DNA of 64,000 bases from the NCBI RefSeq assembly GCF_011045215.1, contig NZ_CP049202.1, one strand, 5' to 3'. The notes beneath the pieces were generated by a model, which was not told where the DNA came from, searched no databases, and saw only the letters and a program-made list of their open reading frames with translations. Below are positions 9,049 through 61,250 of this stretch, piece by piece; the stretch's first letter is position 1, and the number at the start of each line of letters is the position of its first letter. This stretch comes from Escherichia coli. Its GTDB lineage: Bacteria; Pseudomonadota; Gammaproteobacteria; Enterobacterales; Enterobacteriaceae. The translations under genes were made by a program, and so were the position numbers.

Positions 9049-9098
9049 GATGAAACTCCGGGAAAATCTGGAACAGAGCAGAAAAGGATGATGTGGGA

Positions 9099-9836
9099 TT
9101 AATTCACAGAAACAGACCAGGTGTACCCTGTATGCCGGTGGTGATAACCGCCTGCAGTCCTGCCGGAAGAGACCTTCTTTGTAACAATGTCAGTCAGGCG
9201 CAATACTTCAGACCAGTCACTCCCATGCGGAAACTGGATCTGAATAAAAAGGCGTACCCGTTCACGATGATCCAGAACTGTGTCCGGTTCATAAAGCAGA
9301 CCACTATCAGGAGAAACACGGGACGTTTTATTGATGAGTTCGTATTTATCGGCATGAGACAGTGATGAAAGCGCCCAGGTAATATTTTCGCCCTGATGAC
9401 CATCAATACGACTGTTCCCCGGCGTCCAGGCAATTTCCTGCGCATTCGCCACGATGATCTGTCTCGATACTTCTGCCAGCTTTTTTGAAGTACAGAATAC
9501 CGGTGCCAGCACACACAGGGACAAAAAATTGCAGCTGACCGCTTCCGGTTTAACCGGACTGCTCCCGGATTTTTCAGGAAAAGATATTTTTGTCAGTATT
9601 TCAGTTAATTCCTTATGCCTGAGAGAGTTAATAAAGTGCATGACAAGCATCATGAGAAACAATATAACAATAAGCCCTCCGATAACCACTAAAAGGTCAG
9701 TATCAATATTATTGTTGTACAGATAGTCTTTAGTGGTCGCTGTATTATCCTGTATCACCGGGGGGTATTCAGTTACAGGCTTCTCAGTAAATTGATTATT
9801 CTCACCAACATATTCAGCGATATTGTCTGATGTCAT
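9099..9836 (-). CDS. Hypothetical single-pass membrane protein (245 aa from ATG with GGAG RBS); not part of the canonical F tra set
   Basis: ORF between traT and traD; start chosen at MTSDNIAEY (GGAG ~8 nt upstream); one strong TM helix ([22 protein letters not shown]); no recognisable domain. Confidence 0.55.
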
Positions 9837-10038
9837 AATGACTTTCTCCGGAAGCTTCCGGCTTCGCCGGCAACACTTCACGGTCGCACAAAGAATTTGC
9901 ACAACCGCTCAGTGTTTTCATATTTATTTCGGAAACGCCGGGGAGAAATAAAATTTATTTTATTTCTTTCCGGGGTTGGACAACGAGCAAAGCGAGGCGT
10001 CAGTCAGGAGGCCGGTCAGACCAGCCTCCTGAAGATAA

Positions 10039-10783: not shown

Positions 10784-11293
10784 TTAACTAACAGATTCTT
10801 TTTTGAACAGACCTATTACTGAGACTATTGCAGAGAGATTATAACGATTTATATCTATAGTATAAATAAAGGAAAAAATTACAAACAGAGTTATCGATAA
10901 AAAACCAAATAAGAACGTATGGGCGAAGGAAACTATTGAAAAAACAATCACAAACAACAAGATATAAGTTTTGTTCTTATCATACATAAAAGATATAACT
11001 TTCGACTCATCTCTGAATTTTTTAGGGATAGCAAGATACAACATCATTCCATTAGTAATGGCAACAAAAAGGATAAACCCCATTACGCCACTAAAACATA
11101 TATCAAATCCGGCATCTCGGATATCAACTTTATCTGCCAGCAAACGGAGAAATGTCGGCCATAATAAAATCCATAAAAATACATACCCCCCTGGCTTTAT
11201 GACTTGTAATAATGGCGGAATATTAACACCCTCTACAGAGAGTACATCCTTTAGTTTCTGTGTCTCCGTTTTTATATCATAGTGAGTAATCAT
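10784..11293 (-). CDS. traS: TraS-like entry-exclusion inner-membrane protein (169 aa)
   Basis: Very hydrophobic, AT-rich ORF between traG and traT, the position of the allele-variable traS; start ATG overlaps traG stop. Confidence 0.55.
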
Positions 11294-14136
11294 AATGGTC
11301 CCTTCAGTTGATTCTTTTTCTCATCAATCATTTTTTTCACAGTCTCTTCTGATGGCTCAGGTATTATCTTTTGACTTTCTCGCTCTTCATTATATTTATT
11401 ATTCTGAGATAATGCTTCTGTTTTATGGTGATTTTGTAGTTCAGAATACTGTTTTCTTACAATATTTTCCTCGCCTCGGATGCTGTTCTGAGTATCTCCG
11501 ATATTACCTCGATATTCTGTGACCATATTATCAACCTGATGTTTTACATCATCACGGATATTACTGTCCTGCGTTCTTTGATCAATAATGGCCTGATGCC
11601 CCTGATGGTCAGCAATAATATCCTGGCTGCCACCACCCGAAGGTACGCTCTCCATTCCTTTACCAATATCGCCACGGGATTCACGCCAGGCATTATCAAC
11701 ACCAGGCTGTATCTGTTCCTGCACAAAAGACCAGGCCATCGCCCGACGGCGTTCTGCAATCTCCGGCGAACTGGTATTTGTCAGAATAGCTTCGGCATCC
11801 TGCGGTGCGTGTTTCATCACATACTGTGCAAACTGTTGCGACAAATCTTCACTCATCTGCCCACTCATGCTTTCAGTACGGGATGCCATTTCAGCATATT
11901 CATGGCTGCGGGTCATATTCGTCGTGTACTGGTCGTAACTCTGTTTCGCTGAGTTCAGGGCTGCAGACAGCTGGTCCACACGGGAATCGGCATTATTGTC
12001 AGTATGGCTGCCGGACTCACTGACTTTGCGACTGGTAAAGTAATCGCTGGCCTCTTTAAAGTCCTTACTGGCTTTAGCATCGATATCATGTCGAGCATCA
12101 TGGGTAGCCCTGCTGCCACTACTTGCAGAATGTGAATCATCATCCGTTCGATCAAGACTTCCCTTAAATCCGCCTCTGACACCAACTCCACCACCAACCC
12201 CAAGAATTTTAGGTTTAATCCCCCATTCAGCATGAGCATCTGCATATCCGCCATACGAGAACTTAGAACCTGTTGATGCCAGTTCCTGAGTCGCCTGCTC
12301 ATTACTGATATTATGCGCTTTCGCATAGCTTTCCACTGCACTGCGCATACGGCTGGCCATCATGGAGTCCTGTGCGCTCATCGTGCTGTCAGCGCCACCG
12401 GTGACAGAATCACTGCTCCCCCGGTTAGAACCAAACTGACTGAGCGTATTCCAGGCACTGGCAATACTGCTGCTGAACCCATGCAGGGCGCTTTCTGCTC
12501 TGTTCGATGCCTCCCGGGCCATTTCCTGTTGTGCCGCCGCAATCTGACGCGTTGCATTGATACCGACCGGTAAACGGGACATCGCTCCGCTTGCATCCAT
12601 AACCATATTACCGTCACGGGTCTGTGTGGCGGTTGCGCCACTGCCGGTCTGGTACATCATCTGACCAAACGACGTGGTGCTGTTGGTGCTCCAGCTGAAG
12701 CCGTTCACGTTTTCCGTCTGCATGTTGCCGTAGGAGTAATTACCGTCAACCACACTGCCTGCTGCACTGGCCGTCGGACTGATAGATGAAGAGGCGAAGT
12801 GGCTGTACACACTGGAAAAACCTGCGCCAAGGCCTTTTACCATCATCCATGACAACGGGGGTATCATGACAGATATATATCCGGCAGTGGACGCCAGGTC
12901 GGAGTATTTCAGCTGTATCTGAGAGAGTTCAGAGAGCACGACCGGTGCACCATTCTGCTTTGCATAGAATGTCATGGCACTGTTCAGAATGGCATACAGC
13001 AACGGCCAGGTCTGGAACCACATCAGGGCAAACACATAGCCCTTCAGTACAGACAGCGTTAACCTGTTGAAGACCGCCGCCAGTACCAGGAGCGGGAAGA
13101 TACCAATGGTAATGCCCACCAGAATGGTCTGCACCATCGGCAGGTTTCGCATCAGCACATGACCAATGGAGACATGTGCCAGACGCTGTTTCTCCATCGA
13201 CGAGGTCGTGGCCAGACTGACCAGGCTGGCGGTATCACCGTTACGGGCTGCATTACTGGTGATACCCTCTTTCAGGGCATTCATGGTGACGTTCTGGCGC
13301 ATAATATGGCTGGCAGACTGGCTGGAGCCGTAGAAATAACTGTAACTGTCACTCACCAGTTGCCTGAATAACAGGTCCGGGTCCGGTCTGCCGCCAAATA
13401 TCTGCTGGACATAATAATGCCAGGTCTTGCCTCCGGTATTCGTATCAAAATTCAGCTTATCCTTCAGTCCGACGGATGCGTCCTTACAGGACACAAACGG
13501 CTCTGAACTGTGCAGAAAACTGTAATTATTATTCGGCACCTGACGTAAAGGGCTGGGCTGAGAAAAGATTATGGTGTACGGGTCAGAGGAGGCCATCAGG
13601 TCTTCCAGCGTGTATTTGTGATTCAGGTAAATATCACCCAGCACGCAGTTCTGGACGTAGTCCTGAAACAGATTGATGATTTCCGGATTCCGGGACAGAA
13701 AATCGGTGCTTTTCACAATCAGGTTCGCCCCGAACAGCATGCCTGTCTTGCTGTAGGTGGCGCTGTCAGGCTGAGCGAACACCATCTCATAGCCGGCCAC
13801 CATTGCATGCCCGATACGGGTCGTCAGTGAAAGTGGCATCGCCAGTCCGACCGGCACATTATCCACCCGATGGACTTTGACCAGGTCACTGTTATCAATA
13901 ATCTGCACCGACGTGCGGACATTAACCAGCAGGCTGATAAGCACAAACACGGCCACCCAGCCCAGCAAATCCATCACGTTGTGCCGCTGTACCCATATCA
14001 CGGCCACCGCGAGAACAGACAATGTGAGCGCAATTTTTTCAATGGAATCCCACGTCCTGGTTCCCATAAAGGCGGCAATGGCGTTCAGGTTATTCCGCAA
14101 CCATTCACCACCGGCAATCACATAAACTTCATTCAC
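11290..14136 (-). CDS. traG: TraG mating-pair stabilisation / entry-exclusion partner (948 aa)
   Basis: N-terminus MNEVYVIAGGEWL..., N-terminal membrane domain, large periplasmic C-terminal part; track start codon reads as GTG overlapping traH stop. Confidence 0.9.
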   Translation of the reverse strand: MNEVYVIAGGEWLRNNLNAIAAFMGTRTWDSIEKIALTLSVLAVAVIWVQRHNVMDLLGWVAVFVLISLLVNVRTSVQIIDNSDLVKVHRVDNVPVGLAMPLSLTTRIGHAMVAGYEMVFAQPDSATYSKTGMLFGANLIVKSTDFLSRNPEIINLFQDYVQNCVLGDIYLNHKYTLEDLMASSDPYTIIFSQPSPLRQVPNNNYSFLHSSEPFVSCKDASVGLKDKLNFDTNTGGKTWHYYVQQIFGGRPDPDLLFRQLVSDSYSYFYGSSQSASHIMRQNVTMNALKEGITSNAARNGDTASLVSLATTSSMEKQRLAHVSIGHVLMRNLPMVQTILVGITIGIFPLLVLAAVFNRLTLSVLKGYVFALMWFQTWPLLYAILNSAMTFYAKQNGAPVVLSELSQIQLKYSDLASTAGYISVMIPPLSWMMVKGLGAGFSSVYSHFASSSISPTASAAGSVVDGNYSYGNMQTENVNGFSWSTNSTTSFGQMMYQTGSGATATQTRDGNMVMDASGAMSRLPVGINATRQIAAAQQEMAREASNRAESALHGFSSSIASAWNTLSQFGSNRGSSDSVTGGADSTMSAQDSMMASRMRSAVESYAKAHNISNEQATQELASTGSKFSYGGYADAHAEWGIKPKILGVGGGVGVRGGFKGSLDRTDDDSHSASSGSRATHDARHDIDAKASKDFKEASDYFTSRKVSESGSHTDNNADSRVDQLSAALNSAKQSYDQYTTNMTRSHEYAEMASRTESMSGQMSEDLSQQFAQYVMKHAPQDAEAILTNTSSPEIAERRRAMAWSFVQEQIQPGVDNAWRESRGDIGKGMESVPSGGGSQDIIADHQGHQAIIDQRTQDSNIRDDVKHQVDNMVTEYRGNIGDTQNSIRGEENIVRKQYSELQNHHKTEALSQNNKYNEERESQKIIPEPSEETVKKMIDEKKNQLKGPL

Positions 14137-15509
14137 AGCGTGCTCCCTCCGAAGTGATAGTTGTTCTGGTAACGACTGAGCATGCGGGCGGAAAGCTGCT
14201 GACGCATATAGCTCATCTGACGATCGACAACCAGCAGCGCATCCTGCTGTACCTGCACCTGTGACTGAAACGCCGCAATCTGCCGGGTGGCATCATTCAT
14301 GTTGTCGTTAATATGCTCGATAACCGCTTCGTCATAATTTCCCGTGGCCACCATCGCCCGGGCCTGCTGTATCAGCTCCTGAATGTACTGCAGCAGGATG
14401 TCGTAACCGATATAGTCCGTCAGCTGGTAAATCATGCTGTTGGAAACACCGAGCATCTGCGGGTCAACCAGGTATTTGAAGACGGGGATGGTGGTACTGG
14501 AAATAAAGCCTTTTTCCTTGTCATCCAGAGGTGTGTCACTGACCGCCTTGTTCTGAATGCTGGCCAGAAGTTTAGTAATCTGAGACTTCAGTGCATTATC
14601 CCGGCTGATGGTCACCGGTGTGTCAGCCACCACTTTCAGGCATTTATCAGAATCGTTGCAGTGATAAATTTTTGCTGTGCCGCCTTCCATCATGGCCCGG
14701 ATAATTGAGCGGTCAGTGGTTCTGGCCGACAGCGGTGTGATTTCGCCGTTGGGACCAAACACCAGTGAGCCGGTCAGCGTCATCACAAACTCTTTCAGCT
14801 CTTTGTTGCCGTCAAACATTCTGTTTTTGGAAAGCGCATTCCACATGATGTTGATGTTTTTGGTCACCCGCTCCTTATCCTTGTCGCCGGCTTTATCCCT
14901 GACGCTGTCAGATTTCCCGCCAACGGTACATCCCTGCCGGGAAGCCGCCCAGTCAGCAAAAATATTGCTCTCACCGGCAATGTCCTGACAGACTTTCTGC
15001 TGGGACACCTGCGTCCGGGGGAAAAGCCCGCCGATAATCCCCTGTGCAGCCTGGCAGGAACTGAGGTTCATACTGTTAATGTCGCTTGCCATTTTCTGCA
15101 GGAAGTCTTTTGCAGTTTTGATTTCCGGCACCGTTGTCTGCAGGGCAAGGTCAAAAAAGTAACCGGCAGCATTGCTCATAATCTGCTTAACAAAACGCTG
15201 CAACTGCTCACCATTGATGTAACTGAACGAACCGAGATAGGCGTCAATGCCGCCACATCCGGCATTGATATCCGGCAGCGTCATGGAAATCAGCTGAACA
15301 TTTTTGACCTGAGTACGGGCATACAGGGAGCCACCGTAAGCATAGCCGGCGGCCTGCCCCTGCCAGACGCCCGGCTGTGTGGTATTGGAAGCAAACCCCA
15401 GCTTGTTAAAGAACTGATTCATGTCGCTGTTCACATCCGCTGACGCTGCGGGTGTGACCGTCAGTAAAGCGGCACAAAGAACCAGAAGAGGTTTAATGCG
15501 TGGCATCAT
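14133..15509 (-). CDS. traH: TraH pilus assembly protein (458 aa, signal peptide)
   Basis: 458 aa as in F TraH; N-terminal signal peptide; position upstream of traG. Confidence 0.9.
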   Translation of the reverse strand: MMPRIKPLLVLCAALLTVTPAASADVNSDMNQFFNKLGFASNTTQPGVWQGQAAGYAYGGSLYARTQVKNVQLISMTLPDINAGCGGIDAYLGSFSYINGEQLQRFVKQIMSNAAGYFFDLALQTTVPEIKTAKDFLQKMASDINSMNLSSCQAAQGIIGGLFPRTQVSQQKVCQDIAGESNIFADWAASRQGCTVGGKSDSVRDKAGDKDKERVTKNINIMWNALSKNRMFDGNKELKEFVMTLTGSLVFGPNGEITPLSARTTDRSIIRAMMEGGTAKIYHCNDSDKCLKVVADTPVTISRDNALKSQITKLLASIQNKAVSDTPLDDKEKGFISSTTIPVFKYLVDPQMLGVSNSMIYQLTDYIGYDILLQYIQELIQQARAMVATGNYDEAVIEHINDNMNDATRQIAAFQSQVQVQQDALLVVDRQMSYMRQQLSARMLSRYQNNYHFGGSTL

Positions 15510-32226: not shown

Positions 32227-32565
32227 CTAGTCAGTCTCCCTGGCATATTCTGCAGCATCCCCCCGGCGAAAACCGCACGTTACAGACGGAGGCATCGCTA
32301 AATCGGAACCAAAACTGTTCGAGCAGTATCGGACCGGATACAGCCCGGCTGGCGTTCTGCCCCTTACAAACTCGATCTCCTGAACCAGCAATTTCCCCGG
32401 TGTGGTGTTGTCCTTCCATAAAACAAACAGAGCCATCAGGGCCATTGTGGCCAGTGGCAGAATGACGGCGTATTTCAGACACCAGAACAGTCCTCGCAGA
32501 ACCCGGGCGACAACATACCGGGCGGCATGGCCCGCCTGACGGGACGACGTATTATTTGCCATCAT
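32227..32565 (-). CDS. traP: TraP-like inner-membrane protein (112 aa)
   Basis: N-terminal TM; immediately downstream of traB, overlapping its stop; shorter than F TraP. Confidence 0.4.
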   Translation of the reverse strand: MMANNTSSRQAGHAARYVVARVLRGLFWCLKYAVILPLATMALMALFVLWKDNTTPGKLLVQEIEFVRGRTPAGLYPVRYCSNSFGSDLAMPPSVTCGFRRGDAAEYARETD

Positions 32566-36009: not shown

Positions 36010-36225
36010 TTATATATCGTCTATGTCTTCAGCTTCCTCCTTTACTAAAGATGCATTATAAAAGTCGGGAAAACGATTGAGATGATCTTTTAGTCTAATG
36101 AACACCTCATTAGTTTTTGTTCTTCCGCTACGATCCCTGGCTGCTAAAAGTTTCTGATTAGTTGTCTCATCCAGTATTAATAAGACTTTGTTACCTGGTG
36201 CGGCTCTGGTTCTCCCTCTGCTCAC
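36010..36225 (-). CDS. traY: TraY ribbon-helix-helix oriT-binding / PY activator (short, about 71 aa form)
   Basis: Small basic ORF between traJ and traA; RHH-like segment; short form as in R100-type plasmids. Confidence 0.6.
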   Translation of the reverse strand: MSRGRTRAAPGNKVLLILDETTNQKLLAARDRSGRTKTNEVFIRLKDHLNRFPDFYNASLVKEEAEDIDDI

Positions 36226-37582: not shown

Positions 37583-37900
37583 AACACACCTTATTTATCT
37601 TCCTAAACAAACAATATGTTTTCGTGCTCTCTATTCTTCACCTTACGACGAATCGCCATTAGATTCATCATACTAAAATTACGATTCACTATACGAATCA
37701 GCAATCATCAAATGACGAATCTAATATAGATTCACGCGCCAAGTAAATAGATGTTTTCAAAAAAATAGTCATTACTGAATCATTGACAATTCGTGATAGA
37801 TTCACTATCGAATCTATCACGAATCCCTGCAATATAATTCAAAATTATATAATATAAATACACTTCATTAATTACATGATTTAAAACACAAATCAGCAAA
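37583..37900. promoter_or_regulatory. traM promoter region with TraM binding-site-like (sbm) inverted repeats
   Basis: AT-rich region with repeated GATTCACTAT / CGAATC motifs in inverted orientation between traM and the nic site. Confidence 0.5.
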
Positions 37901-38000
37901 AACTTGTTTTTGCGTGGGGTGTGGTGCTTTTGGTGGTGAGAACCACCAACCTGTTGAGCCTTTTTGTGGAGTGGGTTAAATTATTTACGGATAAAGTCAC
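37900..38000 (+). other. oriT core; F-type nic site in GCGTGGGGTGT/GGTGCT (nick at about 37922/37923), plus-strand is the transferred strand
   Basis: Sequence TTTTTGCGTGGGGTGTGGTGCTTTTGGTGGTGAGAACCACCAACCTGTTGAGCC matches the F oriT nic region as remembered, including the GGTGGTGAGAACCACC inverted repeat. Confidence 0.8.
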
Positions 38001-38821: not shown

Positions 38822-38941
38822 TGACTTCCACTTTCTGAACTGTTCGGCAATCACCCATAACGCCTTGTTGATTCTTATATCACCATCAATACCTGTAATG
38901 GCTCTTGTCCTAGTATTTTTCCCGGAGGCACTTTGCCCCGA

Positions 38942-39640
38942 TCATCCACCTTTTATCATATTCTCCTGAACCCGCTGCCAGGTTGTCCAGAGATCGTTCT
39001 GTTTATCCTCCCAACGATGGGGAGTAATTATCTGTTCAGGCGTCACTGGCGTTTTATTTTCATCTTCATACCTGACCATCAGTGCAGCTCTGCTAAATAA
39101 ATGTTGCTCGTCACTGTTAAGATGAATTTCTTTCATCGCCTCCATATTATCAGTGACCTTATCAAAGATACCGAGTACTTCATACGCTCCCTCGATAACC
39201 TGCTCGACAATATCACCTTTATGTGGAACGCGGATTTCGCCAAAATTATTTCCGCACACCAGGCCATTTGTGCAGACAAAACGAAAAATTCCGGGGATCA
39301 TCTGATAACTGGATGAACCATCATGTGAATTAAGCAGGATAATTTCAGGAACTTCCTGCCCGTTAATATGCCCTTCCCTGCGAAGACGTAACATATGTTT
39401 ACTGTATTCGCGACGTCCCAAATCACGAACCCGACTCTGACAGGCAAAGAATGGCTGGAAACCTTCATCACGTAACTTATTGATGATATTGATTGTTGGA
39501 ATATACGTATAACGTTCACTCCGGGACTCATGTTTATCACCGGAAAATACCGAAGGCACGAACTGCATTAATTCATCATCCGTTAAAGGACGTTCACGGC
39601 GGATGGAATTATACCGACCAAAACGGGAAGCTAATCGCAT
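38942..39640 (-). CDS. DUF932-family leading-region protein (orf273-like), possibly C-terminally truncated
   Basis: MRLASRFGRYNSIRRERPLTDDELMQF... resembles the conserved DUF932 protein next to orf169 in F-like leading regions; ATG at 39640 with AGGAG RBS; appears shorter than remembered homologues. Confidence 0.5.
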   Translation of the reverse strand: MRLASRFGRYNSIRRERPLTDDELMQFVPSVFSGDKHESRSERYTYIPTINIINKLRDEGFQPFFACQSRVRDLGRREYSKHMLRLRREGHINGQEVPEIILLNSHDGSSSYQMIPGIFRFVCTNGLVCGNNFGEIRVPHKGDIVEQVIEGAYEVLGIFDKVTDNMEAMKEIHLNSDEQHLFSRAALMVRYEDENKTPVTPEQIITPHRWEDKQNDLWTTWQRVQENMIKGG

Positions 39641-51873: not shown

Positions 51874-52307
51874 GTACCGTTTATCACCGTCCGGCTGACC
51901 CTTCAGGCGATGACAGTTACGTGCGACCGTTGTTTGCCGATCGTTGCCAGGCCGGTTTTCCTTCGCCTGCCACTGATTATGCTGAGCAGGAACTGGATCT
52001 GAACAGCTATTGCATCAGCAGACCTGCAGCCACCTTCTTTCTGCGCGCCAGCGGTGAATCGATGAACCAGTCTGGCGTGCAGAATGGTGATCTGCTGGTA
52101 GTGGACAGGGCCGAAAAACCACAACACGGGGACATCGTTATCGCTGAGATCGACGGTGAGTTCACCGTCAAACGACTGCTGTTGCGCCCACGCCCGGCAC
52201 TGGAGCCGGTTTCAGACAGCCCGGAGTTCCGCACACTGTATCCGGAAAACATCTGTATTTTTGGTATTGTCACTCACGTGATACACAGGACGCGGGAGTT
52301 ACGCTGA
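51870..52307 (+). CDS. impA: ImpA/UmuD/MucA-like LexA-type S24 peptidase (145 aa)
   Basis: Ser/Lys dyad context (SGESM...KRLLL), 145 aa; start overlaps the impC stop. Confidence 0.85.
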   Translation: MSTVYHRPADPSGDDSYVRPLFADRCQAGFPSPATDYAEQELDLNSYCISRPAATFFLRASGESMNQSGVQNGDLLVVDRAEKPQHGDIVIAEIDGEFTVKRLLLRPRPALEPVSDSPEFRTLYPENICIFGIVTHVIHRTRELR

Positions 52308-53577
52308 TGTTTGCACTGGCTGATATCAACAGTTTCTACGCCTCATGTGAAAAAGTTTTCCGCCCGAACCTTCGCAACGAACCGGTCATCGTACTCAGCA
52401 ATAACGATGGCTGTGTGATCGCGCGCAGCCCGGAGGCAAAAGCCCTTGGCATCAGAATGGGGCAGCTCTGGTTTCAGGTGAGACAAATGCGCCTGGAGAA
52501 GAAAATACATGTATTTTCCAGCAATTATGCGCTGTACCACAGCATGAGCCAACGGGTTATGGCTGTTCTGGAGTCGCTTTCTCCCGCAGTTGAGCCCTAC
52601 TCAATTGATGAAATGTTCATTGATTTGCGGGGGATAAATCATTGCATCTCTCCGGAGGTTTTTGGTCATCAGCTCAGGGAACAGGTAAAGAGCTGGACAG
52701 GACTCACCATGGGGGTGGGCATTGCGCCTACAAAAACGCTGGCTAAAAGTGCACAGTGGGCAACAAAGCAATGGCCACAGTTTTCCGGTGTGGTCGCGCT
52801 GACGGCAGAAAACCGTAATCGGAGCTTGAAGCTACTGGGGCTGCAGCCAGTTGGTGAGGTCTGGGGAGTAGGACGCAAACTGACGGAAAAGCTGAATGCG
52901 CTGGGTATTAACACAGCACTGCAACTGGCGCAGGCTAACACGGCATTCATCCGGAAAAACTTCAGCGTCATTCTTGAGCGTACGGTACGCGAACTCAACG
53001 GCGAGTCCAGCATATCCCTGGAAGAAGCACCACCGGCAAAACAGCAGATTGTCTGTAGTCGCAGTTTTGGTGAACGAATCACAGACAAAGATGCCATGCA
53101 CCAGGCTGTTGTTCAGTATGCAGAGCGGGCCGCAGAGAAACTACGTGGGGAGCGTCAGTATTGTCGGCAGGTGACGACATTTGTACGGACATCCCCCTTT
53201 GCAGTAAAAGAACCCTGTTACAGCAATGCCGCTGTGGAAAAGCTTTCATTGCCACACAGGACAGCCGGGACATTATTGCCGCCGCATGCAGAGCCTTAAA
53301 CCATGTCTGGCGTGAAGGGTACCGCTATATGAAGGCAGGAGTCATGCTGGCTGATTTCACACCATCGGGTATAGCGCAGCCGGGATTATTTGATGAAATC
53401 CAGCCCCGTAAAAACAGTGAAAAGTTAATGAAAACACTCGATGAACTGAACCAGTCGGGAAAAGGGAAAGTGTGGTTTGCGGGGCGAGGAACCGCCCCTG
53501 AATGGCAAATGAAACGGGAAATGCTATCGCCTTCGTATACAACACAATGGACTGAGATCCCCATTGCTTCATTCTGA
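52307..53577 (+). pseudogene. impB: ImpB/UmuC/MucB-like Y-family polymerase, disrupted by an apparent 1-nt frameshift near 53253..53257
   Basis: N-terminal part (MFALADINSFYASCEKVFRP...) is in one frame to 53299; the conserved C-terminal part (...TQDSRDIIAAA...YTTQWTEIP) is in another frame to 53577; together about 423 codons. Confidence 0.8.
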
Positions 53578-53581
53578 TATA

Positions 53582-54010
53582 TCAGAATAATTTTTTCATT
53601 TTAAGACGCACATCATTCATTGCCTCCTGCACCGAATCAGTAGCAGAAGGAGGCATTTTTTCAACAGATTGCGAAGCACCGAGTTCAGTCAACACAGCTC
53701 TGATATCGGCCTGAGAAGGCTTCCATCCAGTCGTCTGACTGAGTAAGGTTACAACCTGATCTGCTGAAAACTCCTCGCTCAAAATGGCTGTCAGCAATAC
53801 AGGCAGGCGAGGATCAAGTTGGTGTAACGCCATTCCAGAAATAAATGCATTCCGGAACAGCTCACCACGCTCAGAACGCGGAACGGACTCTATCGCTTCC
53901 AAAGTTTGAAAGTCTGCAGCTTTTTCCGGATGCAGATAAAGTGTGTATTTTTTCCTTTTCCGTTCATCGTCCACAATATTACTCCTCTTTGAAAGCCGCG
54001 ATAGCTTCAA
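53582..54010 (-). CDS. parR: ParR/StbB-like centromere-binding protein (start codon reads as TTG in the track; true start uncertain)
   Basis: Small protein downstream of the parM-like gene with similarity to R1 ParR (...LDSIPRSERGELFRNAFISGMALHQ...). Confidence 0.65.
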   Translation of the reverse strand: MKLSRLSKRSNIVDDERKRKKYTLYLHPEKAADFQTLEAIESVPRSERGELFRNAFISGMALHQLDPRLPVLLTAILSEEFSADQVVTLLSQTTGWKPSQADIRAVLTELGASQSVEKMPPSATDSVQEAMNDVRLKMKKLF

Positions 54011-54950
54011 CCAGTGCTGTCTGTGGCGACTCCATCATCACTACTTTTTGCCCAAGATGGTGCCATGCCGTTTTTATCGAATCATAGATCAACGGGGCCC
54101 CACCACCGACAACATAAACACGATTCACATGATGGAAATCACCGAGCTCATTGACTACTTGCTCCCCCAAACTGGCAATAGCCCCCTCAATGGTATTAAG
54201 GACCAGATCAGTTTTTGTTTCGTCATTTATAACCTGCCGAACAAAGTCCGGGTCATTACGACGTTTAATCAATTCATCTGCAACGAGGAAACTGGTATCA
54301 CTGGATGCCATGCGCAATGCACTCATTGCAGCTTTCGTAACTGAAGACACACCAATGCCAGAATTACCATGAATGGCACTTACAGAGTCAAATTGACCAA
54401 CGATAACACCAACATCAAGCGTAGTGCCGCCAATATCAACTACCAGCGATTTTTCGAACTGACCAACTTTATCCACGACCAGACGAGAAAACACAGCTGG
54501 CAATGATTCAGGCATCACATCAACGTGTTCAATGGTGAAAACATCGCCTTTATTAAGACGAATCGGCCTCATTAAATTCTCAATTTTACGCTGAATGTTG
54601 AGTTCATTTTTTTGACACTCTTTCGTATAGAACTCACTGATAGGCAAAGTCACAGTCAATGATACAGGCTGAGGCGCTAATCCACTATTCAGTAAAGCGT
54701 GATGCACAGCTAACAGGTTAACATCCGTATATTGATACTCAATATGAGTCGTAAGAATAGATTGGTTGCTAACTTCATCATACGTGTATTTTTTACCATC
54801 CAGTTCATAGTTAAATGTCTGGCGAATTCCTAACCCGTCAACCTTCCATCCATGACGAAATGAGTTTTGCGACAACGACTTACAGATTTTTCCATTATCA
54901 TTCCATGCCAACTTGATTGTTGTTGAACCATCATCGCAGTATACGTTCAT
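53979..54950 (-). CDS. parM: ParM/StbA actin-like segregation ATPase (323 aa)
   Basis: Actin-fold phosphate motifs (DDGSTTIKL ... VDIGGTTLD ... VVGGGA) and R1 ParM-like sequence. Confidence 0.85.
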   Translation of the reverse strand: MNVYCDDGSTTIKLAWNDNGKICKSLSQNSFRHGWKVDGLGIRQTFNYELDGKKYTYDEVSNQSILTTHIEYQYTDVNLLAVHHALLNSGLAPQPVSLTVTLPISEFYTKECQKNELNIQRKIENLMRPIRLNKGDVFTIEHVDVMPESLPAVFSRLVVDKVGQFEKSLVVDIGGTTLDVGVIVGQFDSVSAIHGNSGIGVSSVTKAAMSALRMASSDTSFLVADELIKRRNDPDFVRQVINDETKTDLVLNTIEGAIASLGEQVVNELGDFHHVNRVYVVGGGAPLIYDSIKTAWHHLGQKVVMMESPQTALVEAIAAFKEE

Positions 54951-55178
54951 CTATAGCCCCTTAAATACTCAATCTGAGTAAATCATTGTTTCTAGTTGCA
55001 AGGTAATACTCAATTTGAGCACTATCATAGTTATGAAATCACAAAACACAAGTATTATTTATTACATCACATAACGCACTTCATATTTCACACTTCATAA
55101 ATATGAACACATATTGACACCTCAGGTTACCGTGTCAAAATATCATCATACTTCACATATCACATTTATGAGGTTGCA
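54951..55178. promoter_or_regulatory. parC-like centromere/promoter region with short iterated repeats between divergent partition operons
   Basis: AT-rich; repeated ATACTCAAT(C/T)TGAG and TTCACA(C/T)TTCATA-like motifs. Confidence 0.45.
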
Positions 55179-58118: not shown

Positions 58119-61100
58119 TCAGACGTGATTAAACATAGCTATGACAGGATCTGTCATCTCTGCATCCAGCTCCCAGAGATGGGTCATAATACTTTTAAGC
58201 GGATCATCTGCATCTTCCCGGCAGAACGTGCAGAACATCGTATCATCAGGATAACGGAACAGACGTAAACGGCCAAAAGATGAATTCCGTACCAGTAATG
58301 AGTAATTATCCTGACAGTCCGGAACGAAATATATTGTACAGTTGCCAATCATATATTGAAGAACATGTGGCTGATATCCCTTTTCTGGTTTACTTACTCT
58401 TTTTATGCCAAGTTCATTATGTTTATCAGTGCAATATTCAAGTTCGTATAATTTCCTGGAAAAACAATCACCATACACAATGAGAGTGCAATCTTCTTCT
58501 TTTTTCATAAAAATTTTTACTTTATGAAAAAGTTCATCCAGATTGCCTATATCCTCACTCAACTGACCGCGATTAATAAAGAGTTTCCGGTGAACTGTAT
58601 TAAGTATGTTGTCTGCAATTGTTGTTGAGGGAAAAAATGTCGGATCAATTGTGCGTCCAAGTTTCTTTGCCACACTTTCCTTATCAATGCCAATATTAAT
58701 CCATTGTTTTTCCCAGCGTTCTGAAATTCCAGTATCAGGTGTAAACTCAAACAGAGAAAGAAGATGATCTTTCTTAATATCATCAACAACATTCTGAGAG
58801 ATGTTCATATCAATTCTTCTGAAAAGATCGATGTCTGCTTCTGCCTTTATAATATCTGACTTAATACTTTCTTCAAAAGCGGATATGTACATGTCCAGCG
58901 TTCTGTTAAAGAATACAACTCGCGTAGCATACTCCTCCGATGTCTTCAGAAAGTTTTCTGCTACTTCTGTTGTGCTTTTTGTCAGAGATTTCAGCGTATA
59001 AACAATATTTTTTTTATCAGAAAATGAAAAAATCCCTTCACCGATTGCAGTAACCACTTTCTGGCTGATACGTTGTTCAGATACAGACAGCATTACCGCT
59101 ATATCAGCAAATGCAGGGTATAGTGTGTTTAAATCATCAACACTACTCATATAAATCCGCCCGGAAATAACCGGGCCTTTGTTGTTTCTGGTGAGCCTCT
59201 CCACCATATGAGACAAACGTGAAAACCAGTTACTGTGCTCGTCTGCATGGCAGAAAGTGAGACGTAATATAACATCAATAATATCAGTCTGACCTACTAT
59301 TGCCGAAGGTAGTGTATTATATGCACCAGTTGGGGCGACCAGTGAAGGAGACAGTAACCGTTTGATGACAGTGAGCAAATTGACATTTTTTTGTTGTCCC
59401 AGATACCTCACCATATAAGCTGACAGGAACAGGCGGAGATCAGTCATCACATTACGCATTGTCAGGGATAATGCGGCTTTTTCGTTATACGATGCCCCCC
59501 TCAATATGCAGGACTGACAGTTGTCTGAAACAGAGTGCAATAAAAAATCTGGCGTAAGAAAAAGGCTGTGCCACAGATATTCTTCGTGATAATGATTATG
59601 AAACTGCCCCTGATTAAGCCACAGCATAAACATATCAGTACTCAGATCAGTGGCATCAATATCATCAGATGTTATTGCCGTAATAAGCATTTCCATAGAG
59701 CGAAACAAATGTGATACAAGGGCCTCAGTATAGCCAGCAGTATCAACATTATTCTTAAACGTCAGACGCAACCACATATGCCAGCTTTCCCACTCGCCGA
59801 TAAAATGTTGCAGCATTGCAACATAACGTTGCTTCTGGTTCACTGATAACGCCTTGTTTCCAACATTCCAGTCAATCAGTATCTGCCAGATATCACACTG
59901 GGACTGAAGAGCCTGTTGCAACTCTCCGGTTCTGTCTTCTCCCCGATACCGGTAAAAAGACTGAGGAAGATGTATGATCTTTCGAAAATACGTAGATGTG
60001 GTATCCAGTGTTTTCACCACTTCTTCTGCAAGACGGTAGAAATCATTATGAAAAGACTGGCTTAAACTTTGTGGAAAAAATGAAATGGATACATCATCAA
60101 TATAATTTTTATCACCATACTGGAAACATCTTTTCAGTGTAATAAAGGTCGAAACAAGTCTGTCTGCAGCTTCCTCAAACGCCCCCAGATTTCGTTCATC
60201 CAGAGCATCATAAATTTCCCCATAAAAACCTCTGGTGAAATTTAAAAAATTTGTTTTTTCCCATTTGCTTCCACGGATAAAACAGAGCTTAAACAGCTTC
60301 TCCCAGATAGCATTATATCTGATACCGGTTGTAGCCAGAATAACCACTTCGCTGTTATGTATCCCCCACCCAGGTAAGACTCTGATTCTTGCAGGTCCCG
60401 TTCCGACAGGTTTTAATCTCCTGAGGAGAAACAATAATGGAAGTGTATAGATATCTCTCACACATTCATCCATTTTAAGTTTTAACTTCAGAAGATCAGA
60501 CTTTTCCTTCTCCGGAGAATCATAAACATCAACAGAGACATTCAGCCGTCCCATTTGGTTAATATATCTCCCAGGAAGAGCCAACCAGTTTTTTACCATT
60601 GCTGTTCTGATATGTTGCGCCACGACTTTTGAAATAAAATACTTAAGCATAATTCGATCACGCCGGCGATCATCCAGAACATTCAGGCTCTGAATAAAAA
60701 ACCAGATAGACAAACCAATATTCATGATCATCCAGATTATTGCCACTACAACAAGGCAAATATCAAGGTATTTATCCCCCCGGGCAGACAAAAGTTCACT
60801 CACCAGAATAAATGCAGCAAGGGAAAGACCGCTCAGACCTGCAAACATGTATCCTGAGTAAAGCTGATAGGCCGACTGGATATGCTCACGTGTCGATTTT
60901 TTCTGAAAAAGGACGCTGATCAGACCGACAACTAATGGAAATACAATACCAATGATGGTTAATTGTCCACCCAGCAGATCTGAGAGTCCATCTGGAAGCT
61001 TTTCAATCCCCTTAAAATACTGCCTGCCAAATGGAGCCAAGACCGGCCTCAGATACAAACCAGCAAGTACAATCATTATTGCACCAACCCAGAGAATCAA

Positions 61101-61250
61101 CATAGCCCGCCCATAGTATGTCGAGCACCAGGCCAGCAGGCGCTCAAAAACATTCCAGCGGTATTTTCGATATTCAGAATTCATACGTAAATTATGTCTG
61201 AGCTCACGATCAACAAGACTGTTCACGCTTTTAAACAGTTTACTCAACAT
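58119..61250 (-). CDS. Hypothetical large protein (1043 aa): four N-terminal TM helices plus a ~850-aa soluble region with Cys-rich C-terminus; function unknown
   Basis: Single long ORF, AT-rich by eye; hydrophobic helices at about residues 50-190; no Walker A or other motif I recognise. Confidence 0.7.
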   Translation of the reverse strand: MLSKLFKSVNSLVDRELRHNLRMNSEYRKYRWNVFERLLAWCSTYYGRAMLILWVGAIMIVLAGLYLRPVLAPFGRQYFKGIEKLPDGLSDLLGGQLTIIGIVFPLVVGLISVLFQKKSTREHIQSAYQLYSGYMFAGLSGLSLAAFILVSELLSARGDKYLDICLVVVAIIWMIMNIGLSIWFFIQSLNVLDDRRRDRIMLKYFISKVVAQHIRTAMVKNWLALPGRYINQMGRLNVSVDVYDSPEKEKSDLLKLKLKMDECVRDIYTLPLLFLLRRLKPVGTGPARIRVLPGWGIHNSEVVILATTGIRYNAIWEKLFKLCFIRGSKWEKTNFLNFTRGFYGEIYDALDERNLGAFEEAADRLVSTFITLKRCFQYGDKNYIDDVSISFFPQSLSQSFHNDFYRLAEEVVKTLDTTSTYFRKIIHLPQSFYRYRGEDRTGELQQALQSQCDIWQILIDWNVGNKALSVNQKQRYVAMLQHFIGEWESWHMWLRLTFKNNVDTAGYTEALVSHLFRSMEMLITAITSDDIDATDLSTDMFMLWLNQGQFHNHYHEEYLWHSLFLTPDFLLHSVSDNCQSCILRGASYNEKAALSLTMRNVMTDLRLFLSAYMVRYLGQQKNVNLLTVIKRLLSPSLVAPTGAYNTLPSAIVGQTDIIDVILRLTFCHADEHSNWFSRLSHMVERLTRNNKGPVISGRIYMSSVDDLNTLYPAFADIAVMLSVSEQRISQKVVTAIGEGIFSFSDKKNIVYTLKSLTKSTTEVAENFLKTSEEYATRVVFFNRTLDMYISAFEESIKSDIIKAEADIDLFRRIDMNISQNVVDDIKKDHLLSLFEFTPDTGISERWEKQWINIGIDKESVAKKLGRTIDPTFFPSTTIADNILNTVHRKLFINRGQLSEDIGNLDELFHKVKIFMKKEEDCTLIVYGDCFSRKLYELEYCTDKHNELGIKRVSKPEKGYQPHVLQYMIGNCTIYFVPDCQDNYSLLVRNSSFGRLRLFRYPDDTMFCTFCREDADDPLKSIMTHLWELDAEMTDPVIAMFNHV

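Follow-up and report, generated by a model that had tools for sequence, protein, structure and literature searches.

Next to the 3' end of traH on this E. coli plasmid stands a GTG that could open the following gene, and it raises two questions: does traG really start on a non-ATG codon, and do such codons mark coupled gene junctions? The original prediction, read from the 64,000-nt stretch of DNA analysed here (the window), held that traG begins with a GTG overlapping the traH stop, that a parR-like frame begins with TTG, that several other six-frame ORFs likewise begin with non-ATG codons, and that this may reflect translational coupling. Initiation of TraG at the GUG at 14136-14134 within a normal junction, together with initiation of the parR-like protein (StbB) at GUG 53974, is the best explanation overall, to which we give a probability of about 90%. 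The traH-traG junction is a normal, long-known feature of F-type plasmids and is already annotated. The result matters for correct annotation only and leaves the understanding of conjugation and translation unchanged: a first-ATG rule would cut 23 conserved N-terminal residues from TraG, and a longest-ORF rule would lengthen the parR-like protein by 12 spurious residues.

Plasmid context and placement of gene starts

The window derives from an F-like (IncF, MPF_F) plasmid whose tra operon lies on the minus strand, with traG between traH and traS/traT in the order traH-traG-traS-traT. Because the first 40 kb matched no single record (best 90% coverage, 96% identity), annotated starts for this part were projected protein by protein from four records. 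All annotations compared stem from one pipeline (PGAP) and are not mutually independent. The extra ORFs and a 1043-aa ORF gave no match in Pfam, NCBIfam or PADLOC; searches of subsets of these against PHROGs and PDB sequences returned only one weak PHROGs match, of unknown function. Coordinates of the features discussed are collected in Table 1.

Table 1. Coordinates of genes, start and stop codons and ribosome-binding sites considered in the window
Feature	Position	Strand	Remarks
traG stop/traS start overlap (ATGA)	11290..11293	-	next junction; geometry as traH-traG, but with ATG
traG CDS	11290..14136	-	948 aa; acts in mating-pair stabilisation, pilus assembly and entry exclusion
traH CDS	14133..15506	-	457 aa from annotated ATG; Pfam TraH PF06122, E=1.5e-112
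traH stop TGA	14135-14133	-	overlaps the traG GTG
traG initiation codon GTG	14136-14134	-	5'-most canonical start in frame
traG Shine-Dalgarno GGAGGG	14145..14150	-	within the traH codons for C-terminal Phe-Gly-Gly
traR GTG start	30775..30777	-	134 nt after traV; not a coupled junction
traY GTG start	36223..36225	-	135 nt after traJ; projection rests on only 52% identity
orf169 (SLT transglycosylase) GTG start	37921..37923	+	projected from F annotation
parR-like (StbB, Plasmid_stab_B) CDS	53582..53974	-	130 aa; GTG start 53974-53972
parM (actin-like plasmid segregation ATPase)	53979..54950	-	stop TAA 53981-53979
TTG of mechanical longest ORF (53582..54010)	54008..54010	-	within parM; not a real start

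The traH-traG junction

On the minus strand, traH ends in TTC GGA GGG AGC ACG CTG TGA and the traG frame opens with GTG AAT GAA GTT TAT. The two co-directional genes thus share the four nucleotides GTGA (14136-14133), exactly the overlap that had been predicted. Upstream of this GTG the traG frame contains no ATG, GTG or TTG. The GGAGGG motif is placed 8 nt before the initiation codon, and its predicted duplex with the 16S rRNA 3' end amounts to -10.0 kcal/mol. As to traH itself, a second in-frame ATG stands one codon upstream, at 15509 (mechanical ORF 14133..15509); the window protein is 99% identical to F TraH and the projected start is 15506.

The product is clearly an F-type TraG: it scored 1266 bits against the NCBIfam equivalog NF010295 (cut-off 600), residues 3-914 aligning on profile positions 1-921 of 922, and matched Pfam TraG_N (PF07916) with E=6.7e-110. 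Both profiles open at residue 3 of the GTG-initiated protein. It is 94% identical to the TraG of NZ_CP010123, which also has 948 aa. In an incomplete literature search, nothing specific was found on the TraG start, the TraG N-terminus or coupling in the tra operon.

Conservation of the traG start in related plasmids

We then compared the junction with that of other plasmids. In F (NC_002483; traH 84055-85428, traG 85425-88241) the RefSeq traG start is the homologous GTG, the 40 nt upstream of it are identical to those in the window, the GTGA overlap and the Shine-Dalgarno site are common to both, and the first 20 traG codons encode the same protein sequence. The homologous GTG is also annotated as traG start in pLD39-1 (NZ_CP047660), CP057013, NZ_CP010123 and the Salmonella plasmid NZ_CP149381. 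Hence the comparison with curated F annotation that had been proposed as a check, and that could have placed the start on an ATG, came out in favour of the GTG in F and in four other records. The same junction occurs in 2,621 of the 5,426 complete E. coli genomes, where the GTG start is already annotated. F TraG has 938 aa and the window TraG 948, with 89% identity overall; the TraS-recognising C-terminal part accounts for the difference (as in NZ_CP010123), the junction showing none.

A search for TraH/TraG pairs among plasmids yielded more than 5,000 records (PLSDB), the 5,000 listed having at least 66% identity. Four Klebsiella F-like plasmids, whose TraG proteins are 66-70% identical, were informative: in contrast to the window, traG starts there with ATG, which overlaps the end of traH as TGATG. 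In these IncFII/FIB(K) plasmids (e.g. NZ_CP023914, NZ_CP082361), gene order and overlapping stop and start are shared with the window, and the traG start occupies the same position relative to the HFGG motif at the TraH C-terminus and to its Shine-Dalgarno site, whereas the ATG lies in a -1 overlap and TraH is shorter by one codon. Two of the four TraG N-termini correspond codon for codon (MQEIY... versus VNEVY...) and the other two are two residues longer (MTPLEIY...). The ATG at the homologous Klebsiella codon thus fixes the traG initiation site independently of any annotation. The Shine-Dalgarno site itself is kept as GGAGGG, GGCGGAGG or GGGGGGG in F and in the Salmonella and Klebsiella relatives.

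If traG truly began further downstream, at GTG 14121 (codon 6) or at ATG 14067 (codon 24), GTGA would be a coincidence. ATG is the commoner start codon and gene callers tend towards the longest ORF, but both codons lack a Shine-Dalgarno site and codon 6 reads GTC or ACC in Klebsiella. Moreover, TraG residues 3-23 are conserved across the 66-70% identical homologues, with synonymous changes, and are covered by both family profiles. Finally, a review puts F TraG at 938 aa (PMC7555446), a length that is obtained from, and requires, the GTG. A downstream start is thus very improbable and is already contradicted by the comparison with relatives.

Plausible translational coupling of traH and traG

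Initiation at the overlapping GTG brings up the relation between the two genes. In E. coli, -4 and -1 overlaps are geometries experimentally shown to couple translation (Huber et al. 2019, PMC6728339). The traH-traG pair resembles the coupled pairs described there in being co-directional, in its 4-nt stop/start overlap and in having the Shine-Dalgarno site within the upstream gene; it differs from their ATGA and TGATG in using GTGA, and coupling here is inferred from sequence. All nine traH-traG junctions that we read overlap, by -4 in the five from E. coli and Salmonella and by -1 in the four from Klebsiella. The traH stop has shifted by one codon between the lineages and the overlap has nonetheless been retained, including in these diverged relatives.

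Coupling is therefore plausible, as it would fit both the geometry and the conservation of the overlap. Most probably, a ribosome ending traH would be released on top of the traG start codon and its Shine-Dalgarno site, and TraG synthesis would then start either through termination-reinitiation or through facilitated local initiation. Such coupling would link the output of two components, membrane and periplasmic, of the conjugation machinery. GUG would stand in place of AUG owing to the constraint that the overlapping traH stop places on the bases.

Less probably, traG would use the same GUG independently of traH, its Shine-Dalgarno site recruiting free 30S subunits and the 4-nt overlap being mere genome compaction. 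The strong (-10.0 kcal/mol) and well-spaced Shine-Dalgarno site would indeed also allow traH-independent initiation. RNA folding at the traH-traG and parM-parR-like junctions was no better than that of shuffled sequences (z-scores +1.01 and -0.40, respectively), so an upstream ribosome should not be needed to expose the traG site and, with no structure occluding the start, RNA folding gives no reason to regard coupling as obligatory. However, the overlap persisted in both lineages despite the shift of the traH stop, and most of the -4 and -1 pairs of E. coli assayed with reporters were coupled (PMC6728339).

Quite speculatively, GUGA (-4) in E. coli and Salmonella and UGAUG (-1) in Klebsiella could, rather than being neutral variants, represent different TraH:TraG ratios tuned in each lineage, with the AUG at 14132 maybe dampening TraG; we regard this as improbable. 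This out-of-frame AUG, 4 nt after the traG GUG, opens a 4-codon mini-ORF (MKFM*) and shares the traG Shine-Dalgarno site. As a competing start it was rejected, the codon being AAC in the Salmonella relative.

The parR-like start downstream of parM

The second non-ATG start that had been singled out belongs to the parR-like gene. ParM was recognised by Pfam StbA_N (E=1.7e-64) and by the ParM C-terminal domain (E=4.3e-44). The protein encoded directly downstream matched PF10784 (Plasmid_stab_B; E=7.2e-30, 103.1 bits for a gathering cut-off of 25), which together with this location assigns it to ParR/StbB. The original prediction was right that its start is non-ATG and wrong about the codon: annotation (CP057013) places it at GTG 53974, 36 nt downstream of TTG 54010. 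Between the parM stop and this GTG there is a 4-nt gap and no overlap. A Shine-Dalgarno site, GAGGAG (53987-53982), is located 7 nt upstream of it, with a duplex of -8.6 kcal/mol. StbB makes a second ordinary case, with a GUG 4 nt past the parM stop and its own Shine-Dalgarno site.

A start at TTG 54010, 32 nt inside parM, has in its favour that no other ATG, GTG or TTG lies between this codon and the in-frame stop upstream of it. Yet no Shine-Dalgarno site precedes it (the strongest duplex, at 18 nt, reaches -2.2 kcal/mol) and it is not conserved, being TCC in two homologues (L010 and L011). Homologues start, with ATG or GTG, just past the parM stop: in those with 45-46% identity an ATG occupies the equivalent position, 3 nt past that stop, and the N-terminus is one codon longer; the Enterobacter homologue starts with GTG. 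Furthermore, position 1 of PF10784 falls on residue 8 of the GTG-initiated protein. Initiation at this TTG has hardly any likelihood; the codon is a longest-ORF artefact inside parM.

The arrangement resembles the type II partition operons parM-parR and stbA-stbB of R1 and NR1, in which an actin-like ParM is directly followed by a small Plasmid_stab_B protein. A parC-like centromere of iterated repeats would be expected upstream of parM; there the window has an AT-rich region of 228 nt (54951-55178) with short, imperfect iterations of motifs such as ATGTGA/ATGAAGTG, in only two-copy families with 75-93% identity. In contrast, NR1 StbB is only ~34% identical to the parR-like protein over 73 residues and has 116 aa with an ATG start, versus 130 aa and GTG here.

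Non-ATG starts across the window

Does non-ATG initiation then constitute a systematic signature of coupled junctions in this plasmid? Both traG (-4 overlap) and stbB (4-nt gap) start with GTG close behind the upstream gene, as would be expected. We therefore examined start codons throughout the window. Among 63 genes, the projected annotated starts were ATG in 57, GTG in six and TTG in none, and seven further small tra-region genes all start with ATG. The longest-ORF rule applied to the same 63 genes gave 12 GTG and 7 TTG starts. The observation that several ORFs of the six-frame reading open on codons other than ATG holds only mechanically, since projection leaves the six GTG starts, a number not above chance; most of the other non-ATG starts in the six-frame reading are longest-ORF artefacts. 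Non-ATG starts represent 9.5% of window genes, below the ~18% of the published background (about 14% GUG and 4% UUG; PMC9841429), and the probability of at least 6 in 63 at p = 0.18 is 0.98.

The supposed link with coupling is not supported at the junctions themselves: of 15 overlapping tra junctions only one has a non-ATG start, the other 14 opening with ATG, which means no enrichment at coupled junctions. Conversely, traR, traY and orf169 carry GTG after long gaps. A signature of this kind is contradicted by the window census, and we attach almost no credence to it. The start codon also varies at a fixed site, traC beginning with GTG in F and with ATG in the window. At orf169, an ATG also stands further upstream, at 37876, but in the window its frame runs into a stop at codon 3.

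The traG start at the traH-traG junction

The window (64 kb) is an F-like conjugative plasmid. The records closest to it are typed as IncFIA/FIB/FIC, MOBF and MPF_F; its tra operon, which runs from traM (start 37582) to traX (end 859) and finO, lies entirely on the minus strand, and the 38-64 kb part holds the leading region, the parM/stbB partition module, ccdAB and further maintenance genes.

On the minus strand, traH ends with ...CAC TTC GGA GGG AGC ACG CTG TGA (TraH C-terminus ...HFGGSTL*) and the traG frame opens one base before the TGA, reading GTG AAT GAA GTT TAT GTG ATT GCC GGT GGT GAA TGG (V/M-NEVYVIAGGEW). The GTGA overlap is real, because GTG occupies 14136-14134 and TGA 14135-14133. 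This GTG is also the earliest ATG, GTG or TTG in the traG frame: the 40 in-frame codons scanned 5′ to it contain no stop and no canonical start. Its Shine-Dalgarno site, GGAGGG, is predicted to form a duplex of -10.0 kcal/mol with the 16S rRNA 3′ end, and both downstream in-frame candidates, codon 6 (GTG) and codon 24 (ATG), lack such a site. An out-of-frame ATG 4 nt past the GTG opens a 4-codon mini-ORF (ATG AAG TTT ATG TGA; 14118-14132, minus strand); this ATG is also present in F, and a Salmonella relative has AAC there.

Start and stop codons, Shine-Dalgarno site and reading frame at the junctions analyzed
Feature	Position	Strand	Remark
traG start GTG	14136-14134	minus	sequence
traH stop TGA	14135-14133	minus	sequence
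traG Shine-Dalgarno GGAGGG	14150-14145	minus	8 nt upstream of GTG
traC start	28904-28906	minus	ATG (MSKNPLE); F (L002, the F sequence in the traC comparison, 13742) GTG (V/M-NNPLE)
Mechanical ORF of the parR-like frame	53582..54010	minus	opens with TTG
parM stop TAA	53981-53979	minus	4-nt gap, then stbB GTG
stbB start GTG	53974	minus	GAGGAG 7 nt upstream

The F plasmid (NC_002483) is identical to the window over the 40 nt 5′ of the GTG, and the first 20 codons of its traG give the same protein sequence. RefSeq places F traH at 84055-85428 and traG at 85425-88241; here too the two genes overlap by 4 nt and traG starts at GTG. These traG coordinates imply a 938 aa product, the length that a review (PMC7555446) gives for F TraG; starts at codons 6 and 24 would yield 933 and 915 aa. 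The same GTG is annotated in pLD39-1 (NZ_CP047660), CP057013, NZ_CP010123 (TraG of 948 aa, as in the window) and one Salmonella plasmid, all by PGAP and thus not independently of one another. The comparison with four Klebsiella F-like plasmids (66-70% protein identity) is free of any annotation. In all four, traG starts with an ATG that overlaps the traH stop as cTGATG. For two of them the codon alignment pairs this ATG with the GTG of the window (MQEIY[VT]IAGGDW versus VNEVYVIAGGEW), and the other two have a TraG N-terminus with two additional residues (MTPLEIYTIAGGDW). Residues 3-20 are conserved relative to these plasmids, with synonymous differences, and residue 3 is profile position 1 in both Pfam TraG_N and the NCBIfam TraG equivalog.

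Four lines of evidence (F itself, the other annotated records, the diverged relatives and the family profiles) thus agree that the GTG is the true start of traG, and the original prediction of a GTGA overlap with the traH stop is confirmed. F and the four other annotated records have their start at this GTG rather than at other ATG codons; the assignment is correct, consistent with F annotation and already known. When a 120-nt query with the junction in its middle was run against 5,426 complete E. coli genomes, 2,621 matched (1,186 matching records at least 99% identical). The GTG start is an ordinary feature of low interest.

Possible translational coupling

Reporter assays in E. coli have shown coupled translation for the geometry seen at traH-traG, a -4 overlap whose Shine-Dalgarno site falls within the upstream gene (PMC6728339); coupling at this junction is plausible from the sequence. 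The overlap was -4 or -1 in 9/9 junctions read, suggesting selection for it; the traH stop lies one codon later in the E. coli/Salmonella lineage than in Klebsiella, with the traG start unmoved. Against obligatory coupling, the traG Shine-Dalgarno site has the strength to support independent initiation, and the junction RNA does not exceed shuffled controls in structure (z = +1.01). RNA of the parM-stbB junction gave the same result (z = -0.40). A literature search for experimental data on coupling found none.

The parR-like gene stbB

Only one gene is a candidate for the parR-like frame, the Plasmid_stab_B (StbB) gene that follows parM; the second small partition-type gene belongs to the CopG family, lies after a ParA-like ATPase and has an ATG start. 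The frame had been predicted to start with TTG. It does have a non-ATG start, the codon being GTG; the TTG, a longest-ORF artefact, lies 32 nt inside parM, lacks a Shine-Dalgarno site and is TCC in homologues. Sequence 3′ of parM reads AAA GAG GAG TAA TATT GTG GAC GAT GAA, with a GAGGAG duplex of -8.6 kcal/mol, and CP057013, 100% identical at stbB, has a 130-aa protein annotated from this GTG. In StbB homologues of 45-46% identity the start is an ATG located 3 nt past the parM stop (M[YH]DGEERKK versus VDDERKRKK in the window), NR1 StbB also has ATG, and an Enterobacter homologue has GTG as in the window. Between parM and a divergent parA-like ATPase gene lies an AT-rich intergenic region (54951-55178); its several short, imperfect repeats (ATGTGA, ATGAAGTG) could represent a parC-like centromere or operator.

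Start codon census

Annotated proteins of F, CP057013 and NZ_CP010123 were projected onto the window. The 63 genes start with ATG (57) or GTG (6: traG, traR, traY, orf169/SLT, a 105-aa hypothetical gene and stbB), none with TTG; seven more small tra-region genes, all hypothetical, each start with ATG. Under the longest-ORF rule, the same 63 genes give 12 GTG and 7 TTG, and 14 of these 19 calls disagree with the annotated start (13 become ATG, and stbB changes from TTG to GTG). Such artefacts account for the several non-ATG six-frame ORFs noted earlier, a claim that holds only mechanically (19/63). The non-ATG share, 9.5%, is below the background of ~18% (PMC9841429), with P(6 or fewer) = 0.049 and P(6 or more) = 0.98. 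Among 15 overlapping tra junctions (1 to 80 nt), traH-traG alone has a non-ATG start; contrary to what had been suggested, there is no link between non-ATG starts and coupled junctions.

The start codon can vary at a fixed site. traC has ATG in the window and NZ_CP010123 and GTG in F; in window and F it lies 3′ of the same TAAGGAA Shine-Dalgarno site, the window being one codon longer. This is a natural start-codon polymorphism. For the orf169/SLT transglycosylase (37876-37923, plus strand), the CP057013-type ATG runs into a stop at codon 3 (MI*), so the only usable start in the window is GTG 37921, as annotated in F.

Unassigned and probably disrupted genes

In F, traC and trbI overlap; in the window an insert of ~1.57 kb (24688-26260) separates them. 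Within the insert, a 312-aa ORF runs on the opposite strand (24940-25878, plus) and had no match in a family search. CP057013 encodes a hypothetical protein of 368 aa at the corresponding location, and the C-terminal 287 residues of that protein share 92.7% identity with this ORF. The traT-traD spacer (9049-10038) measures 990 nt versus 252 nt in F and NZ_CP010123 and holds a 267-aa ORF (9099-9902, minus; GTG by mechanical call) for which Pfam, NCBIfam, PADLOC and PHROGs gave no match. Near ccdAB and an integrase gene lies an ORF of 1043 aa that starts with ATG (58119-61250, minus) and is annotated as hypothetical in CP057013; it matched nothing in Pfam, NCBIfam, PADLOC or PDB-sequence and gave a weak PHROGs hit of unknown function.

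A DUF932 leading-region gene (38822-39640, minus) has an in-frame stop at codon 233/273, and the CP057013 gene table skips the matching locus tag. Also absent from that table is the umuC-like gene after umuD (52307-53577, plus), which is open for 330 aa only (IMS domains), with the remainder in another frame (ORF 53161-53577), suggesting a frameshifted pseudogene. Finally, traP (32562-31975, minus) is probably a pseudogene, because an in-frame TAG at codon 112 (32227-32229; Arg in F), changing ETDRSLMQL to ETD*SLMQL, shortens the predicted product to 111 aa versus 196 aa.
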